This document shows, in pieces, positions 34,694 through 57,704 of a DNA stretch of 64,000 nt. The stretch's first letter is position 1; every line of letters begins with the position of its first letter. A program made the position numbers and the translations under genes. The stretch comes from an uncultured bacterium (GTDB taxonomy: Bacteria; Chlamydiota; Chlamydiia; Chlamydiales; SM23-39), in contig OY970323.1 in the NCBI GenBank assembly GCA_963716985.1, positions 1,632,001 to 1,696,000 of the forward strand. Direction: 5' to 3'. Under the pieces are notes generated by a model. The model did no database searches, was not told the DNA's origin, and worked only from the letters and a program-made list of their open reading frames with translations.

Positions 34694-35676
34694 CGTTCAC
34701 TTCTCATAAGATATTCTTGAACATATTCTTTGACCGATTCTTGGATCTCTCTTGTTTGCGCTTGCGGATGAAGAGCAAAATACTTCTGCATATCCGCGCA
34801 GGTATAATTCTGATATTGGGCGGAGATATTTTCCGGAATGTCAATGTACTCAATGTTGGCCTCTTGATTCATCGCGCCAAAAAGAGCTCGCACCAATGCA
34901 TTCCATGTAACCGCCTTTCCTCTGCCCACGTTGAATATTCCACAAAAGTCATTGTTCAAAAATCCCGCGGTCATTTGCACTGCATCTTTCACATAAATAA
35001 AATCCCGGCATTGTTCGCCATCTTTATAGGAGGAATGATTGGATTTGAACAGACGAACCCTGCCCTCTTTTTTGATTTGAAAAAACATATGGAAGATCAT
35101 CGAGGCCATGCGCTGTTTGTGATATTCGTTGGGGCCAAAAACATTAAAATACTTCAAACCGACGGCCTTCCCGAGCAATTTCTGAGAAGAAAGCCAAAGA
35201 TCGAACAGATGCTTGGAATACCCATACATGTTCAAAGGCCGCAAAGCTTCCAGTTGTGATTCATCATCGGAAAATCCCCTCTTCCCATCTCCATATGTGG
35301 CAGCGGAAGATGCGTAGATGAAGCGAATTTCGTTTTCCAAAGCATATTCTGCAAGCTTCACGGAGTAGCGATAATTATTTTCCAAAAGATAATCCGCATT
35401 GTGTTCCGTGGTATCGGAACAGGCGCCAAGATGAATGATGGCAGAAATTTCTTCTTCTCTTCCTTGCAAAAAACGAAAGAGATCTTCTTTTGAGATCAGG
35501 GCCTCAAACTTCTTGCCGACCAGGTTTTTCCATTTTTCGCCGTTTTTCAGATCATCGACAAGCAACAGGTGAAAATAGTTTTGCTCATTGAGGTATTTGA
35601 CAAGGCAAGAACCGATCAATCCGGCCGCCCCGGTGACGACAATCATCTTCTCCTCACCATTCACGTTTTGCCTCAT
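34687..35676 (-). CDS. hldD: ADP-L-glycero-D-manno-heptose 6-epimerase
   Basis: VTGAAGLIGS, HLGACSDTTE, YASSAATYG, PLNMYGYSK, YFNVFGPNEYHK; ATGA overlap with the ispE stop. Confidence 0.95.
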   Translation of the reverse strand: MRQNVNGEEKMIVVTGAAGLIGSCLVKYLNEQNYFHLLLVDDLKNGEKWKNLVGKKFEALISKEDLFRFLQGREEEISAIIHLGACSDTTEHNADYLLENNYRYSVKLAEYALENEIRFIYASSAATYGDGKRGFSDDESQLEALRPLNMYGYSKHLFDLWLSSQKLLGKAVGLKYFNVFGPNEYHKQRMASMIFHMFFQIKKEGRVRLFKSNHSSYKDGEQCRDFIYVKDAVQMTAGFLNNDFCGIFNVGRGKAVTWNALVRALFGAMNQEANIEYIDIPENISAQYQNYTCADMQKYFALHPQAQTREIQESVKEYVQEYLMRSERW

Positions 35677-36542
35677 GTGGAACAATACCATTTCTTCTCC
35701 TCTCTTTGACAACCCTTAACGGGATGAAAAACAAACCCGGCTAGCTTTTTCTCTCTTGGCTCTCCAAAACAGAAAAAACACGAGCCGCTTCCGGTCATCA
35801 CAACCCGCTCAAATCCCATTTCCAAAAGTTTTTGCTTGACGTCCCGAAGCCTAGGCTCAACAAAAAAAGCAGCAATCTCTAAATCATTGTAATAAGTAGG
35901 GGAATCTTTCCAAAAGGATTTTAAAAGATTTTCCGGACTTTCTTGCGAAAGAAGAGCCAAATTCACAGAACGATAGACCAGTTGCGTCATCATTCCGAAA
36001 GGAGGAACGGCAAGAGTTGCAGAAAGTGAAAAGGGAATCTTTACACTTTGAATCTTTTCCCCTCTTCCGGTGCAATAGGCAGATCCAGGGGAAAAGAAAA
36101 AGGAAACATCAGAACCAATCTCTGCCCCCAAAGAAGCAAGTTCTCCCTCAGTTAACGCATTGCCGCAAAGCTCATTCAACCCCCATAGAGTAGTGGCCGC
36201 ATTGCTGCTTCCCCCCCCTAAGCCCGCCTGAATCGGGATTCTTTTTTCCAGATGGATCTTCGCAAAAAAAGAAAGCTTGGTCTTTTGTCGAAAAAGAAAA
36301 AGAGCGCGTAAAACAGAGTTGGAAGAATAGTTCTCTAATGAATGCTCGTTGGAAGTAAAGGAATCTTTCTCAGAAAGTTCTATAGAGACCTGATCAAAAA
36401 GATCAATCGCCTGATAAAGAGACGCCACCTCGTGATATCCGTCCGGCCTCTTTGCAAGAACCCGGAAGAAAAGGTTGAGTTTTGCAGGAGAGAAAAGCTT
36501 TAACGAAGCAGCGCTAAAGCTTTTCGCTAAAAGAAAGTTCAT
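35673..36542 (-). CDS. ispE: CDP-ME kinase
   Basis: SPAKLNL, KRIPIQAGLGGGSSNAA, GSDV, MTGSGS. Confidence 0.96.
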   Translation of the reverse strand: MNFLLAKSFSAASLKLFSPAKLNLFFRVLAKRPDGYHEVASLYQAIDLFDQVSIELSEKDSFTSNEHSLENYSSNSVLRALFLFRQKTKLSFFAKIHLEKRIPIQAGLGGGSSNAATTLWGLNELCGNALTEGELASLGAEIGSDVSFFFSPGSAYCTGRGEKIQSVKIPFSLSATLAVPPFGMMTQLVYRSVNLALLSQESPENLLKSFWKDSPTYYNDLEIAAFFVEPRLRDVKQKLLEMGFERVVMTGSGSCFFCFGEPREKKLAGFVFHPVKGCQREEKKWYCST

Positions 36543-37021
36543 GCGCCTAGATGAGATGGTTCGACTTTTTCCGCTTCAGCAGCCACTTTTAAATGAATGG
36601 TTACCGTGACCCCCTCTTTGAGCTTCAATAGAACGTCATGCATGCCAAGCTCTTTGATGGGCTTCTTTAGATGAATATTCTTTTTCTCAATAGGAAACTC
36701 TCCTTCCGGAAAAAGAGAAAGAATATCTTGCGCAGATACAGAACCATACATCTTGCCTTCGGGATCTACCTTGACATGGGCCGTCAATGTAATATCTGTC
36801 AAACGGCTGGCCAATTCTTCCGCTTCTTTTTTGTCTAGCACAGCTCTATGAGCTCTTTCTTCTTTGAGCTTTTCCTGCATGCGCAGAGTATGTTTTCCGG
36901 GATGTATTCCTTTTTTTTGAGGAAGAAGGAAATTTCGAGCATAGCCGGTACGTACGGAGACAATCTCTCCGCTTCTTCCTAAATCATCAACATCTGCTAT
37001 TAGTAAAACATTCGTTCTCAT
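36539..37021 (-). CDS. rplI: 50S ribosomal protein L9
   Basis: LGRSGEIVSVRTGYARNFLLP, GKMYGSV. Confidence 0.97.
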   Translation of the reverse strand: MRTNVLLIADVDDLGRSGEIVSVRTGYARNFLLPQKKGIHPGKHTLRMQEKLKEERAHRAVLDKKEAEELASRLTDITLTAHVKVDPEGKMYGSVSAQDILSLFPEGEFPIEKKNIHLKKPIKELGMHDVLLKLKEGVTVTIHLKVAAEAEKVEPSHLGA

Positions 37022-37028
37022 GGCAGCC

Positions 37029-37316
37029 TCAATCTTCGGTTACGAAGGGTAGAAGAGCCATATAGCGGGCTCTTTTAATTGCCTTCTTTAAAATTTGTTG
37101 ATGAAAAAAAGATACGCCCGTAATACGCCTTGGCAAAATCTTTCCTCTTTCCGTAATGAACTGCTTCAAAGTTTCTATGTCTTTATAGTCAATCGCTTTC
37201 ACGTTGGACGCCGTAAAGGGACACTCCTTTTTCTTCTTTACAAATCCCCCTTCCGGCCCGGAAGCGGATGATGGTTTTTTAAAATCAGATGAATATGATG
37301 GTCCTTTTCCAAACAT
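37029..37316 (-). CDS. rpsR: 30S ribosomal protein S18
   Basis: [26 protein letters not shown]. Confidence 0.97.
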
Positions 37317-37321
37317 TGCCG

Positions 37322-37669
37322 TTACCTCTCCATGGGTTTGAGTGGTTTGAATTCCAAAGTCTCTAAAATCTTTTCCGTTCGCATCGTCATAAATCGAAGA
37401 AGATCTTCATGAAGCTGATAATCCTTGATCAGTTCTTTATGCTTGAGTGAGGGAAGGGAAAAATAGAGGAGATAGTAAAAGCCTTCTCTCTTGCCTCTGA
37501 TTTCATAAGCGAGGCGTCTTCTTCCTTGATCATGAGTCTTATGGATCTCGCCCCCTCTTTCGACAATGCCGTTTGTGATCTTATCCAAAGCTCTCTTTCT
37601 AGCTTCTTCACTAAGGGTTGCATTAATAATGTACATTCCCTCGTAAAGATACTTTCTTTCTTTTTTCAT
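37322..37669 (-). CDS. rpsF: 30S ribosomal protein S6
   Basis: [30 protein letters not shown] abuts the mobile-element end. Confidence 0.96.
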
Positions 37670-37738
37670 CCTATTGACAGCGCGGAAACCCACTCCTTTA
37701 GGGGTGGGAGGAAGCACTGCTCCTTTGTTGTTAAGTTT

Positions 37739-37762
37739 AAAAACGGGGGGATTTCTCCCCCC
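37739..37762 (-). terminator. Terminator-like hairpin inside the element
   Basis: GGGGGGA-GAAA-TCCCCCC-G-TTTTT on the minus strand. Confidence 0.55.
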
Positions 37763-38017
37763 TAGCAGTTACCTGCAATCTCCGATTTCCCGGGTAAAGT
37801 TCCCCTCGCCAAAGTTATGGAGCGGTTTATATGTTAGCAGCACTGGTTTAACCCGTAAGCCTGTTTAACCACTAACCGCAGGATCCAGAACTGGGGTGGC
37901 ATTCCGGAGTGCCTATATATTCGCTCCTAACGTAGTCTCTAAATACGCAAGAGACTGAGGCTGGTCAACTTCAGGCCTGATTTCTCAAGCCTTTCCCTTC
38001 AGGGAAGGGTGGTTGAC
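37740..38017 (-). ncRNA. IscB omega-RNA (HEARO) scaffold
   Basis: Hallmark order GTCAAC..GTTGACCAGCCTCAG..CTACGTT..GGCACTCCGGAATGC..CCCAGTTCTGG..TTAAACAG..CAGTGC..AAACC..AACTTTGGCGAGGGGAAC..TTAC, with paired helices AGTCTCT/AGAGACT and GGAGCG/CGCTCC; 3' end approximate. Confidence 0.88.
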
Positions 38018-38036
38018 TCGTCATTCCTCTTTCTAA

Positions 38037-38627
38037 CTAAATTTTTTTACGAGACCTATTGGCTCGATTCATTGCTTGCACAACTCCCTCTCTCAGCCAT
38101 AATGCAATGATCTCTACAGCCTCTTCCAAAATCCATGGAAGCGCTCTTTCCTCATCTTGGCTAAAGGGAGCCAACACATATTCCTCCAAACTTCCCTCTT
38201 CTCGCGGTCCGATGCCTAAGCGAAGCCTCGCATATGCATCACATCCTAAATGCATTTCAACACTTTGCAGACCCTTGTGGCCCCCGCACCCGCTATGTTC
38301 TTTCAGTCGAAATTCCCCAAAAGAGATATCCACATCATCCACAACCACAAGTAGCCGGCTCATCTCGATCTTAAAATAATCCATTCCACATCGGACCGCC
38401 TCCCCGCTCAAGTTCATGTAGGTCTCGGGCACGAGCAGAAAAACATTTTTTTCTTCGATTTTTCCGTTGGCTTGCAATCCCTTCAACTTGGGGGATTTTT
38501 TAAAACTCCAACCCCATTTCTTTGCAAAAGCTCCTACTGCCAGAAACCCCATATTGTGGCGCGTCTTCTCATACTCTTTTCCAGGGTTGCCAAGTCCTAT
38601 AATCAAGTAGTTAGAAGAAATCACCAT
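38037..38627 (-). CDS. pth: Peptidyl-tRNA hydrolase
   Basis: GLGNPG..TRHNMGF, PETYMNLSG, GGHKGL, RLRLGIG. Confidence 0.96.
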   Translation of the reverse strand: MVISSNYLIIGLGNPGKEYEKTRHNMGFLAVGAFAKKWGWSFKKSPKLKGLQANGKIEEKNVFLLVPETYMNLSGEAVRCGMDYFKIEMSRLLVVVDDVDISFGEFRLKEHSGCGGHKGLQSVEMHLGCDAYARLRLGIGPREEGSLEEYVLAPFSQDEERALPWILEEAVEIIALWLREGVVQAMNRANRSRKKI

Positions 38628-38628
38628 C

Positions 38629-39192
38629 TCATGCACGCGGCTTTGTCACAAGAGCAACGACTTCTTGCATCTGTGCTAAGGACTTTACGCCTTTTGGAAG
38701 GACAATGTCTTTGACTCTTTTTGTATGTCCCAATTCTAAATGGGCCACATCGATCTGAAACGCTCCAGGAATGTCCTTTGGCAGACAGCTCACCCTAATC
38801 GATCGCATCGTCTGTCTCAAGAGTCCGCCCACCTTCACGCCAACGCAAGCCTCTTCCCCAACGCATTCGATAGGGACGGCAACTCTAACTTCCTTTTTTG
38901 GGGAAAGTTTTTCAAAATCCAGATGGATCACTTCATAACTCGTCACATCATATTGAATTTCTTTCACGATCGCCGAAAACGTTTCCTTTTCACTTTTCAA
39001 AGTAAACACGGTCGTCGACAAACGTCCCTTTTGCATCTCGTTCAAAATTTTATTAAAATCATGAGCGCTGAGCGAAATATTCTCATTTTCTTGGCCCTTA
39101 GCATAAATGATCGCTGGAATAGATCCTTGAATGCGAAGCTTTTTAATATCGCTTTTACCGGCTCTTTTTCGGTGAAATATTGCAAGTTCCAT
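38629..39192 (-). CDS. rplY: 50S ribosomal protein L25/CTC
   Basis: GSIPAIIY, HLDF, GVKVGG, CLPKDIP; between prs and pth. Confidence 0.94.
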   Translation of the reverse strand: MELAIFHRKRAGKSDIKKLRIQGSIPAIIYAKGQENENISLSAHDFNKILNEMQKGRLSTTVFTLKSEKETFSAIVKEIQYDVTSYEVIHLDFEKLSPKKEVRVAVPIECVGEEACVGVKVGGLLRQTMRSIRVSCLPKDIPGAFQIDVAHLELGHTKRVKDIVLPKGVKSLAQMQEVVALVTKPRA

Positions 39193-39280
39193 TTCTTCTC
39201 CTGCTCTGTTTACTTTACATCGAATGGATTATTTTAAACGTCAGCGCCCTTTTGCGAAAGCAAAAAAGATCTTTTTTTCT

Positions 39281-40222
39281 TCAAAGCTGCCCTCTTTGAT
39301 ACAGAGAGGAAAGAGATTTTGCCTGCACAATGCATTCAATGGCCCCCGCAAACATCGACCCAACCGATAGAATTTCCACATTTTTCGAATGATTTTTATA
39401 TGGGATCGTATTGGTGGTAATAAATTTTTCTATGTCTCGCGACATTTGAGGATTGTCAGAAAAAGGACCGTGAACCACAGCCGCCGCAATCCTTTGCGCC
39501 CCCCTTTTTCTGCATATTTCTGCTGATAATGAAAGAGTTGCACCCGTCGACCAGATATCATCTACAATCACGGCATCTTTGCCCTCCACGTCCCCGATCA
39601 AGGCATTCATCTCCACGCGTTTTTCGTCCAACCGTCTTTTGTCTATGATCGCCACATCCCAGCCAAGCCATTCGGCAACTCTCATAGAAAGTTTTTTACT
39701 CCCCACGTCGGGCGCAACAATCACCCCCTTCCGGAAAGACAATTTTTGAATCCCTTCAGCCAAAAAAGGCAAAGCATGCAGATGGTCGAGTGGAATATCA
39801 AAAAAACCTTGAATCTGATCGGAGTGCAAATCCATCGTCATCACCCTGGTACATCCCGCCCTTTGCAAGAGATCGGCCACCAGTTTTGCTGTAATCGGAA
39901 CACGCCCCTTGTCCTTGCGATCCTGTCTGCCATATCCATAGTAAGGGATCACTGCAACAATGGTTCTTGCCGATGCCCTTTTGAGGGCATCAATCATGAT
40001 GAGCAGCTCCATGAAATAATGGTTGGGCCGCAAAGCAATGGTCTGGATCACGAACACATCTTTATTGCGAACGCTTTCCAGAATCTGTATGCCCGTTTCT
40101 TTGTCGGGATAGGTTTTGATCTGCACTTTTCCAAGGGATTTCCCTAAGACAGCGGCGATTTCCTCAGCCAATGAGGAATGGGAAGAGAGAGAAAAAAGAA
40201 CCGTAGACTCGTTTTGAGTCAT
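39281..40222 (-). CDS. prs: Ribose-phosphate pyrophosphokinase
   Basis: [40 protein letters not shown]. Confidence 0.96.
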
Positions 40223-55036: not shown

Positions 55037-55106
55037 AGAAAACTTCCTTTAGGAGTATTTTAACATGCGCTACTCTCAAAAGCAAAAAAAGGTTTTTTTT
55101 CAGGCC

Positions 55107-57704
55107 ATGGAAACCACCACAACTCCCTTGATGCAGCAGTGGCAGTCTTGCAAAACCCAGGCAAAAGATGCCCTTCTTCTCTTTCGTCTGGGCGACTTTT
55201 ACGAAGCTTTTTATGAAGATGCCAAACTGCTTTCCAAAGAGCTCAGCTTAACGCTCACGCACAGACAAGACTCTCCGATGTGCGGAGTGCCTTTCCATGC
55301 GGTCGACCATTATATCGACAAGCTCATCGCGAAAGGATTTAAAATCGCTATCGCCGAACAGATGGAAGATCCCAAGAAAGGAAAAGCCCTCGTCAGGCGT
55401 GATATCGTCCGCATCATCACTCCGGGAACGATTGTCGAATCGCGCCTTCTTTCGGAAAAAAACAATAATTTTTTCCTCTCATTAAGTCAGATCGGAAAAA
55501 CCTTTGGGCTTGCGATCATCGATCTGACAACGGCCGAGTTTCGCGTATTGGAAATAGAGGAAGAGAAAGATCTTTTGACCGAGCTTTTGCGCTGGAAGCC
55601 CTCCGAATTGATCGTCTCGAAAAAATTTGTGCAAAGCCACCCTTCGTTTTTTTCTGAGCTTTCCTACGCCTTTGCCTTTCTATTGAATACGAAAGAAGAG
55701 TTCCATTTCGATTTGAGGATGACTACAGAAACTCTTATTTCTCATTTTCAGCTGCAAACCTTGGATGGGCTTGGCCTCGGAGGCATGAACGCTGCCATCG
55801 AAGCTGCCGGCGCCCTTTTATCCCACCTTTCGGAAGAGCTCCACGTCAACCTCTCTCACATCCGCCATCTCCAGATAGAAGAAGTCTCTTCCTATATGTC
55901 GCTCGATTACTCCTGCATGAAAAATCTCGAGCTCTTCGACTCTCTCTCCTCCGACAAAAAAAACACCTTGATCCATTTTCTCGACCAGACAGCCACTCCA
56001 ATGGGAGGAAGAAAACTTCGCCAGTGGCTCCACTCTCCTCTTCTTTCCATAGAGGATATTAGAAAAAGAGAAGATGCCATCGAAGAACTTTTGCAAAAAG
56101 AAGATCTCCTCGGCTCGCTCCCCTCGCTTCTCGATCCGATCAAAGATTTGGAAAGACTCAACATGAAAATCTGCAGCCGCATGGAATCTCCAAGGGATAT
56201 GACCTCTCTTCGCACTTCTTTAGAAGCGCTGCCCGGATTAAAAAAGGCCCTCTCCTCGCTCTGCTCTTCGCTTGTTCGGCAAGGAGTGGAAAAGCTTTTC
56301 GATCTCACCCCTCTTACAGAAATGATGAAAAAAATGCTGGCAGACCTTCCTCCTCTTCGCCTGTCCGAAGGGGATGTGATCCGCGACGGCGCCGATGCCC
56401 GCTTGGACGAGCTGCGCCTCATTTGCCGCGACAGCCGCAGTTGGATCGCCTCTTATCAAAACCAACTCCGGGAAGAAACCTCTATCAAGAATTTGAAAGT
56501 AGGATTTACGAAGATTTTTGGCTATTTCATCGAAGTGAGCCGCGGACAAACGGATAAGATCCCCCCCTCCTTTCAAAGAAGGCAAACGCTCTCTACGGCA
56601 GAGCGCTACTGCACGGAAGAACTGAAATCCTTCGAACAAAAAATCCTCACGTCTGAGGAAAGAAGCCTTGCCCTCGAGTCCTCGATTTATCAGCAGATTC
56701 GAGAAAAGGTTGCTAAGCATTTCGAAGAAATCTCTCAAATAGCCAGCGCTATCTCTTTGATCGATGCTCTTTTTGCTTTGGCGCTCATCGCCAAAAAGCA
56801 TCATTATACGCGGCCCATTGTAGACGAAGGCCATCTTCTGCAAATCAAAAATGGCCGCCACCCCATCATCGAGTCTTGCCTTGCTTCTTCAAAGTTCATC
56901 CCCAACGACACCCTGATGGACGGCGAAGAGAATCAGCTCTTTTTAATCACAGGTCCTAACATGGCGGGAAAATCCACCTACATCCGCCAGGTCGCGCTCA
57001 TTGTCATTCTTGCCCAGATAGGATCTTTTGTCCCGGCTGCATTTGCCCATGTCGGGATTGTCGACAAACTTTTTTCCAGAATCGGCGCTACCGACGACAT
57101 CGCCAAGGGACAATCCACATTCATGGTAGAAATGACCGAAACCGCCAATATACTCAATAACGCCACATCAAGGTCTCTTGTCCTGCTTGACGAGGTAGGA
57201 AGAGGAACCAGCACCTACGATGGAATTTCCATTGCTTGGGCGGTTGCGGAATTTCTTTTAACCACACCGGGAAAAAAAGCAAAAACCCTTTTTGCAACCC
57301 ATTATTGGGAACTCACCCATCTGGAGGGAAACATTCCGGGTGCCGTCAACTATAACGTCGCAGTGGAGGAAACATCTTCGGGCATTGTCTTTCTTCGCAA
57401 GATTGTGCGCGGGGGGACGGACAAAAGCTATGGCCTCCACGTAGCGAAATTGGCAGGAATCCCTCCAACCGCCCTCAAACGAGCCGAAGCTATGCTCGCA
57501 ACTCTGGAAAAACAGTCCAGCCGTCCACAGAAATTCGATTGCAAAAAAACAAAAAACGAGGAACAGCTCTCCCTTTTTTCTCCCGACGCTTTTTTCTTGT
57601 CCGAACTCAAAGAAACAATCAAGCGGATCGACTTAGATCGCACATCCCCCATCCAAGCCCATCAGAAACTCTTGGAGCTCCAACAAAAAGTTTCCCAACT
57701 TTGA
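55107..57704 (+). CDS. mutS: Mismatch repair protein MutS
   Basis: TPLMQQW, FRLGDFYE, TGPNMAGKSTY, STFMVEM, DEVGRGTST, ATHY. Confidence 0.98.
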   Translation: METTTTPLMQQWQSCKTQAKDALLLFRLGDFYEAFYEDAKLLSKELSLTLTHRQDSPMCGVPFHAVDHYIDKLIAKGFKIAIAEQMEDPKKGKALVRRDIVRIITPGTIVESRLLSEKNNNFFLSLSQIGKTFGLAIIDLTTAEFRVLEIEEEKDLLTELLRWKPSELIVSKKFVQSHPSFFSELSYAFAFLLNTKEEFHFDLRMTTETLISHFQLQTLDGLGLGGMNAAIEAAGALLSHLSEELHVNLSHIRHLQIEEVSSYMSLDYSCMKNLELFDSLSSDKKNTLIHFLDQTATPMGGRKLRQWLHSPLLSIEDIRKREDAIEELLQKEDLLGSLPSLLDPIKDLERLNMKICSRMESPRDMTSLRTSLEALPGLKKALSSLCSSLVRQGVEKLFDLTPLTEMMKKMLADLPPLRLSEGDVIRDGADARLDELRLICRDSRSWIASYQNQLREETSIKNLKVGFTKIFGYFIEVSRGQTDKIPPSFQRRQTLSTAERYCTEELKSFEQKILTSEERSLALESSIYQQIREKVAKHFEEISQIASAISLIDALFALALIAKKHHYTRPIVDEGHLLQIKNGRHPIIESCLASSKFIPNDTLMDGEENQLFLITGPNMAGKSTYIRQVALIVILAQIGSFVPAAFAHVGIVDKLFSRIGATDDIAKGQSTFMVEMTETANILNNATSRSLVLLDEVGRGTSTYDGISIAWAVAEFLLTTPGKKAKTLFATHYWELTHLEGNIPGAVNYNVAVEETSSGIVFLRKIVRGGTDKSYGLHVAKLAGIPPTALKRAEAMLATLEKQSSRPQKFDCKKTKNEEQLSLFSPDAFFLSELKETIKRIDLDRTSPIQAHQKLLELQQKVSQL

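Follow-up and report, generated by a model that had tools for sequence, protein, structure and literature searches.

The rpsF locus

All genes considered here lie on the minus strand of the window, which is the whole stretch of 64,000 nucleotides that was analysed, and follow one another in the order prs, L25/ctc, pth (38636..38037), rpsF, rpsR, rplI and ispE, with a gap of 367 bp between pth and rpsF. The gene rpsF (37669..37322) codes for ribosomal protein S6 of 115 aa and is followed by rpsR (37316..37029) and rplI (37021..36539), both as given in the ORF list, and, after rplI, by ispE (36542..35673). Behind the pth stop codon (38039..38037) comes a left flank of 19 nt, TTAGAAAGAGGAATGACGA (38018..38036), which holds the native rpsF Shine-Dalgarno (SD) sequence GAGG at 38029..38026. 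The rest of the gap is taken up by an iscB-less mini-element of 348 bp (37670..38017, as delimited by copy alignment), which sits precisely between the native SD and the rpsF ATG. The SD has been displaced 348 nt farther upstream by the element, without which its spacing to the ATG would be 8 nt. The motif on the downstream side of the junction, ATGAAA (37664..37669), serves the element as target or TAM (N|ATGA; TTCAT in the complement) and at the same time consists of the native start codon of rpsF and the Lys codon after it.

The empty site is found in the same-genus relative G001, which reads TAG-AGAGGTGCAACAGG-ATGAAAACA with no insert and keeps AGAGG 9 nt before the rpsF ATG. The ancestral rpsF thus had an SD, as does rpsF in the relatives. 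All 29 relatives examined have pth immediately 5' of rpsF in the same orientation; the two genes are separated by no more than 96 nt in 27 relatives and by 205 and 266 nt in the remaining two. As pth directly precedes rpsF in the relatives, rpsF transcripts must begin upstream and cross the element. S6 is encoded by one intact copy in the genome, and since this single copy is 83% identical to the S6 of G001, rpsF has to be regarded as a working gene. A first-pass annotation of the sequence had described an insert that removes the rpsF SD and sets a GC-rich hairpin with GTTTTT before the operon, together with two AAAGGAG motifs, one 2 nt before a GTG codon and one 23 nt before the ATG. All of these features were recovered in the present analysis.

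A guide-RNA-only derivative of an IscB transposon

Alignment of the copies places the 5' boundary of the element at the G of GTCAAC and the 3' boundary at the base before ATGAAA, with the 3' end reading ...GTCAATAGG. Positions 37794..38017 (minus strand) are occupied by a complete HEARO RNA (RF02033), the omega RNA scaffold of IscB, which was matched over model positions 1-211 with 142.8 bits against a gathering score of 83 (E=4e-31). In an Rfam scan of 36500..39500 at E<=1, HEARO was the sole match, with neither a group I intron nor an r-protein leader. This bears out the earlier observation that no group I intron core is present, and the absence of such a core from the scanned region speaks against an IStron or group I intron. 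Positions 37670-37762 form the 3' module of the mini-element 38017-37670 on the minus strand, and it is hardly open to doubt that this mini-element descends from an IscB (ISC, IS200/IS605) transposon, with the guide RNA as its only gene. By the IscB paradigm, as laid out in the available text of Meers et al. (10.1101/2023.03.14.532601), the left flank TTAGAAAGAGGAATGACGA is predicted to be the guide of the omega RNA.

The pth-rpsF gap region gave 21 BLAST matches in its own genome of 2.07 Mb, in which 19 homologous element ends were found, the stretch in front of rpsF being one. An intact IscB of 442 aa, in which RRXRR and HNH domains were recognised, is encoded by two copies of about 1.63 kb; a further six, about 350 bp long and including the one at rpsF, are without iscB, and about ten are 5'-truncated remnants. 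The truncation endpoints of the remnants gather 8-15 nt upstream of the first AAAGGAG motif (SD1 below), as judged by eye, but since shorter remnants would escape detection by BLAST this is not counted as evidence. In the full-length copies the start of iscB occupies the position of the GC hairpin; the rpsF copy is not directly upstream of any iscB ORF, and the GC hairpin stands in the place of iscB. Conservation among the 19 homologous ends extends to both AAAGGAG motifs and both hairpins and marks these as features beyond chance.

The element has subterminal imperfect hairpins rather than inverted repeats, its 5' end being formed by the P1 stem of the omega RNA. HEARO has 11 matches in the genome, 9 of which are above the gathering cut-off. 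The omega RNA copies at G000:C1 21236-21459 and 1049235-1049421 (106.8 and 38 bits) are without a detectable 3' end module, and remnants that miss the 3' end number two, against about ten that keep just the 3' end beside a host gene. Y1 transposase (PF01797) is represented in the genome by two intact genes and a broken one: two identical tnpA genes (G000:C1 757416-757772 and 1970077-1970433) lie inside a 2.5-kb repeat, while 55054-55381 is the third locus, and the hairpins downstream of tnpA are unlike those of the IscB elements. At a further locus, L075 (G034:C49), the same end occurs in both orientations around one hairpin as a perfect palindrome, TTTCAT-linker-hairpin-linker-ATGAAA, with a foot that lacks an SD.

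Docking at start codons

ATGA directly abuts all 19 element ends of the genome, and the longer motif ATGAAA is found at 16 of them. An ORF of at least 79 codons opens at that ATG in 17 of the 19 cases, compared with 23.1% of the 7252 genomic ATGAA sites (binomial P=1.6e-9); the two exceptions are a frame of 28 codons and a copy located 4 nt upstream of tRNA-Glu. Pfam domains start at residues 2-4 in the family-2 glycosyltransferase, the short-chain dehydrogenase and the Cdd1 protein encoded downstream of such ends. At the level of domain matches, this shows that the ORFs abutting the ends are real genes and the ATG is their true start. Further docked genes are adenylate kinase (adk), RuvC, FliH/SctL, a secretin and an autotransporter. 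The first-pass annotation had supposed that an element targeting ATG-containing motifs may mitigate the damage by supplying initiation signals. This gains in silico support from the ATGA at every end, the ORFs opening there and a GGAG motif in 28 of 30 aligned ends (see below), but the in-frame start that was part of the idea is not family-wide.

Insertion is site-specific and without duplication next to N|ATGA, with one empty site found (G001). According to the available parts of the respective sources, an N|ATGA target has been reported for several ISC families (PMC4810608), the TAM of ISGst IscB elements is TTCAT (Meers et al., 10.1101/2023.03.14.532601), and the TAM of OgeuIscB is NWRRNA, which ATGAAA fits (PMC12660989). 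The transposon family and its target are therefore already published, and the element belongs to a known family. In the portion of PMC4810608 covered by a term count, 'start codon', 'initiation codon' and 'ribosome' have 0 occurrences each. No report on ISC/IscB ends supplying a ribosome-binding site (RBS) or affecting the downstream gene was found in the literature searched.

Some insertions differ in their surroundings. The copy next to tRNA-Glu (L002:1419-1500; G000:C1 about 1919143-1919224) is a mini-copy with a terminator-like hairpin, ends 4 nt before this gene, which is followed by tRNA-Lys, and has an ATGA target that is not a protein start. At L003:973-1854 (G000:C1 1002779-1003648), two divergent elements stand back to back with about 345 bp between their 5' ends, each abutting the ATG of its own gene (an ORF of 79 aa and a V-ATPase E/HrpE-like ORF). 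In five of the 11 omega-RNA-bearing copies (G000:C1 166141, 389379, 1491365, 1818584 and 21236), a co-oriented upstream frame reaches the first base of the element; these insertions probably split ATGA stop/start overlaps, with the upstream gene now ending within the element.

A Shine-Dalgarno motif at the foot of the terminal hairpin

Towards rpsF, the minus strand of the element carries the motif AAAGGAG at 37720..37726, termed SD1, which forms the 5' foot of the terminal hairpin and lies 2 nt before the GTG. The hairpin itself has 44 nt (37677..37720), with an outer stem at 37720-37714/37683-37677 and an inner stem at 37708-37704/37693-37689, and is presumed to be the recognition hairpin of TnpA. 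The linker CAATAGG (37670..37676) leads from the hairpin foot to the ATG and consists of the last bases of the element. SD1 is a perfect 7-nt complement of the 3' tail of the 16S rRNA (the 16S ends ...GGATCACCTCCTTT, the tail is ...GGAUCACCUCCUUU, and both rRNA 3' ends were found).

An alignment of 30 ends was built, to which the present genome contributed 19 and six further genomes of the order 11. Of these ends, which thus come from 7 genomes, 28 contain the GGAG of SD1 at 0-2 nt from the first Watson-Crick pair, and SD1 is kept in 15 of the 17 non-full copies, that is, minis and remnants without iscB; as the copies are mutually related, these counts overstate the independent support. In the terminal hairpin, 89.7% of the alignment cells are paired and 11 of the 14 pairs have changed on both sides; none of 500 shuffles came as high, and controls slid along the sequence gave 29-46%. 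SD1 persists despite the covariation of both stems. The distance between the last Watson-Crick pair and the start codon measures 8 nt in 15 ends, 9 in 10, 10 in four and 7 in one, and a G.U closing pair, which is possible in 26 of the 30, would shorten each distance by one nt.

In the rpsF copy, SD1 lies 50 nt from the ATG in linear terms, 8 nt with the hairpin looped out and 7 nt with the G.U closing pair. Native GGAG spacings in the genome range from 4 to 10 nt with a peak at 5-7. When the leader that follows the terminator is folded to its minimum free energy, it contains the hairpin (-19.1 kcal/mol when taken alone) and leaves SD1 as well as the ATG unpaired. Both AAAGGAG motifs had been described as poorly spaced in the first-pass annotation; for SD1 this objection goes if the conserved hairpin loops out to leave 7-8 nt. 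The AAAGGAG in the loop is unsupported as an SD.

That SD1 is kept for translation is argued by its conservation at the nucleotide level even though the IscB frames across it differ, reading KRSSASSHP* in the present genome (G000) and TKEEQRFLPP... in an IscB-sized ORF of G064. Its retention in minis and remnants without iscB argues in the same direction, as does the fact that bacterial ends of the ATGA type mostly have an SD at the hairpin foot, whereas five of six archaeal ones do not. These public ends were read by hand, since an automatic outer-stem finder applied to 80 public loci mis-set several stems. An SD at the foot was read in three chlamydial MAGs, a Chloroflexia MAG (GGAGG) and a Dehalococcoidales MAG (AAAGGAGGTG), and the outer stems of the two Chloroflexota ends with GGAGG or AAAGGAGGTG are unrelated. 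The Oscillochloris end has a marginal SD and one cyanobacterial end has none.

The folding model thus allows the tentative proposal, which is given somewhat less than an even chance, that S6 is made via the element-borne SD1 in a split RBS like those of T4 genes 38 and 25. Several findings count against it. A loop-out of 44 nt is far bigger than in the two T4 genes, the 8-nt spacing is on the upper side of the native peak, and the predicted probability that SD1 is unpaired is only 0.03-0.67 across the copies. Moreover, all of the transposon end is conserved, so that SD1 might have been preserved for recognition by the transposase rather than for translation; in some haloarchaeal ends, a motif resembling GGAG or GGGG stands a few nt 5' of the stem. 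A wobble strand test, from which two pairs were left out, counted 20 G.T against 13 A.C cells and did not favour the RNA strand.

The alternative that survives best is the use of the native ATG without any SD, in which the A-rich, weakly structured start AUGAAAAAAGAAAGAAAG would be enough and the GGAG would owe its conservation to transposition or be left over from IscB coding. SD usage in this genome is moderate, with a 5-mer SD at 22% of crude ORF starts against 5% of control windows and a 4-mer at 48% against 23%, and because the 5-mer is found at just 22% of these starts, SD-free initiation is common. The ATG of the rpsF copy is mostly unpaired (P=0.62), conservation spans the whole end and not SD1 alone, and the hand-read ends without an SD at the foot, one cyanobacterial and five of six archaeal, are also consistent with a start that needs none. 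Initiation of this kind is nevertheless unlikely, if still to be reckoned with, as an SD was present in the ancestral rpsF and is found in rpsF of the relatives, and as SD1, which matches the 16S tail perfectly over 7 nt and has a fixed position, survives both the covariation of the stems and the change of the IscB frame. With or without an SD, S6 very probably starts at its native ATG.

The terminator-like hairpin and probable read-through

Upstream of SD1 on the minus strand, the GC hairpin GGGGGGAGAAATCCCCCC (37762..37745, -15.9 kcal/mol) is followed by the T-run GTTTTT (37744..37739). It has 7 pairs, 6 of them G-C, and a GAAA loop, and was flagged by a terminator scan. A GC hairpin with a T-rich run stands at the same place in 8 copies of the genome, with compensatory changes in the stem (GGGGGGAG...CTCCCCCC versus GGGGTCGC...GACCCC), and it recurs in mini-type ends from three genomes of other families in the order, namely G093, G029b and, with a weaker likeness, G127. 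The short U tract comes after G or GC and has the variants GTTTTT, GCTTTT, GTTTGT and TATATTT. From its conservation and position, the hairpin with its T-run is probably the 3' terminator of the omega RNA of the guide-RNA-only derivative.

A consensus promoter scan with inspection by eye found no promoter-like site in the 70 nt after the hairpin (37739 to 37670); the only promoter-like sites found by the scan on the minus strand are at 39258-39231 and 37136-37109. Upstream of seven of the 11 omega-RNA-bearing copies, among them the minis before sctL/fliH and ybbR, a co-oriented open frame of 104 codons or more lies within 25 nt, and at least three mini-copies stand directly after co-oriented upstream frames. 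Since minis are found directly behind co-oriented upstream frames, termination cannot be complete. Expression of the rpsF operon by read-through of the hairpin is considered probable with good confidence, and on the strength of these sequence features it is plausible that the element is an attenuator of rpsF-rpsR-rplI.

It could be objected that a stem of 7 bp (6 G-C) with a GAAA loop and a U5 tract resembles a competent terminator. If it terminated efficiently, the operon would need an unrecognised downstream promoter, RNA processing or partial DNA excision, for which the two intact Y1 transposase genes of the genome might speak, or its expression would be crippled. This is improbable, given that the 70 nt after the hairpin hold no promoter-like site, that the same hairpin precedes sctL/fliH and ybbR right behind co-oriented upstream frames, that the tnpA copies are accompanied by different hairpins, and that S6 is intact and conserved.

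The in-frame GTG and the start of S6

The GTG at 37715..37717 (minus strand) is in frame with rpsF, and the end of the element is open in this frame, as noted in the first-pass annotation: the ORF 37322..37717 has 131 codons, made up of the 115-aa S6 and the 16-aa extension MLPPTPKGVGFRAVNR. The GTG results from a C-to-T change in the stem that is present in this copy only, the other copies having GCG, and the T keeps the stem paired as G.U. In 11 of the 19 copies there is no in-frame start upstream of the ATG, and 8 copies lose the open frame within 10 codons. The possibility that other copies keep an open frame into the TAM ATG, which the same annotation had raised, therefore did not hold for the family, and an in-frame alternative start was rejected as a family feature. 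The open frame at the end of the element may be a relic.

In the present genome (G000), iscB ends at a TAA that is located within the loop of the hairpin and precedes the ATG by 32-33 nt. In G064, an ORF of 451 codons and IscB size (not family-scanned) crosses the whole hairpin in the frame of the GTG extension (...RFLPPLKEGVSALSN) before ending at a TGA that shares bases with the host ATG. At this locus (L057, G064:C7) the IscB-size ORF, about 1490 nt upstream of the ATG, ends in TGATG at the host start, a layout that would couple translation of the host gene to iscB.

If S6 began at GTG 37717 and so gained 16 residues at its N-terminus, its SD would be the AAAGGAG just before that codon. The frame is open, GTG is a valid start codon and AAAGGAG stands just upstream, but at a spacing of 2 nt the native GGAG count is near background (10 versus 57 at the peak), and the GTG lies within the outer stem. 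It is also unique to the rpsF copy, with 11 of the 19 copies lacking any in-frame upstream start, and S6 begins at the homologous position in all 29 relatives, with MK... in the closest ones. Such a start is very improbable.

The AAAGGAG in the hairpin loop

The second AAAGGAG (37693..37699, minus strand) covers the loop and 3' arm of the hairpin, 23 nt before the ATG at 37669. It belongs to an 18-nt hairpin motif, TCCTCCCACCCCTAAAGG, that was found in 86 stretches of public genomes from archaea and bacteria, with a range comprising haloarchaea, Thermoplasmata, Micrarchaeota, cyanobacteria, Chloroflexota, Firmicutes and Chlamydiota. Because TCCTCCCACCCCTAAAGG is a transposon-end hairpin across bacteria and archaea, the AAAGGAG within it is not evidence of an RBS. 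A HEARO search of 12 public loci with TCCTCCCACCCCTAAAGG gave no match, which argues that these are not guide-RNA minis. Many occurrences of TCCTCCCACCCCTAAAGG (L084-L163) are immediately preceded by TTGAC(A/C), a sequence context that suggests one ancient transposase hairpin common to several IS200/IS605 end types.

It is least probable of all that the SD in use is this loop motif or the terminal AGG abutting the ATG: both motifs are present and a G stands at position -1 in 26 of the 30 ends, but GGAG at 23 or 0 nt from native starts is no more frequent than background, the loop motif is part of a hairpin shared with archaea and reads TTTAAAAA in G127 and ACAAGG in copy c389 of the present genome (G000), and the last bases of the linker differ between lineages (ATTG, TTGG, AAAG, TAAA).

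A model for expression of the rpsF operon

The preferred reading combines read-through with a split RBS. The rpsF operon would still be transcribed from upstream together with pth, and RNA polymerase would pass the omega RNA terminator, with its GC hairpin and G-interrupted U5 tract, which would then act as an attenuator. Initiation of S6 would take place at the native ATG, where ribosomes may be recruited by SD1 (37726-37720) once the folded 44-nt hairpin is looped out and the distance of 50 nt is reduced to 7-8 nt. The GTG extension and the AAAGGAG of the loop would be by-products with no role.

Comparison with known systems

Stem-loops at the left end of IS200 act both as a terminator against impinging transcription and in translation control. 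These hairpins of a member of the same family regulate the element's own tnpA, whereas it is the downstream host gene that would be concerned in the case of rpsF. PATEs, gene-less derivatives of IS200/IS605, resemble the mini-element in being short and protein-free, in having both transposon ends and in occurring in several copies; the mini-element differs by retaining a complete guide-RNA gene and a terminator-like hairpin of its own.

In sequence organisation the mini-element is close to ISC transposons with the target N|ATGA (such as ISC1-1_MA and ISC2-1_MS; Kapitonov, Makarova, Koonin 2016, PMC4810608) and to the ISGst IscB elements, which, according to the available text of the sources, likewise combine IscB with HEARO/omega RNA. 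They also share the absence of terminal inverted repeats, the subterminal hairpins, duplication-free insertion just 5' of ATGA (TTCAT), a 5' end that starts with GT(CA), a 3' end that ends in G, and a mostly non-autonomous state. In contrast to these elements, the rpsF copy has lost iscB and has a terminator-like hairpin instead. Start codons, RBSs and effects on downstream genes are not discussed in the available portions of the two ISC/ISGst papers (PMC4810608; 10.1101/2023.03.14.532601).

In T4 genes 38 and 25, as described in the available part of PMC3014915, a hairpin shortens the distance from SD to AUG from 22 to 5 and from 27 to 11 nt, respectively, and destabilising the hairpin lowers translation. 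The rpsF case is similar to these split RBSs (PMC3014915) in that a linearly distant SD would be brought back to a working distance by an intervening hairpin, here from 50 to 7-8 nt in silico. It differs in that the bridge, predicted only, is a two-stem hairpin of 44 nt which is also a transposon end and is portable between genes.

Implications for the element family

It is possible, and put forward more guardedly than the reading for S6, that IscB/ISC elements which target ATGA carry a portable split RBS, and that old insertions trimmed to about 70 nt (SD, hairpin and linker) remain as the permanent RBS of the host gene. If true, an SD at the foot of the transposase-recognition hairpin would be placed 7-9 nt from any docked start codon by loop-out in the mRNA, and one DNA hairpin would do two jobs, serving in the recognition of single-stranded DNA by the transposase and as an mRNA bridge for translation initiation. 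The element and its guide-RNA-only minis, with their leaky terminator, could then insert between SD and ATG even where a gene is essential, as in a ribosomal protein operon, and guide-RNA transcription would be drawn from host operons at the cost of attenuating them.

This would explain how an RNA-guided family whose target is a Met-Lys start codon can spread in operons without killing essential genes, and why its remnants turn into 5' leaders of host genes. Should the split RBS not hold, what remains is an ordinary representative of a known transposon family in an awkward position; if it holds, the rpsF copy offers a testable case of a mobile, self-contained RBS.
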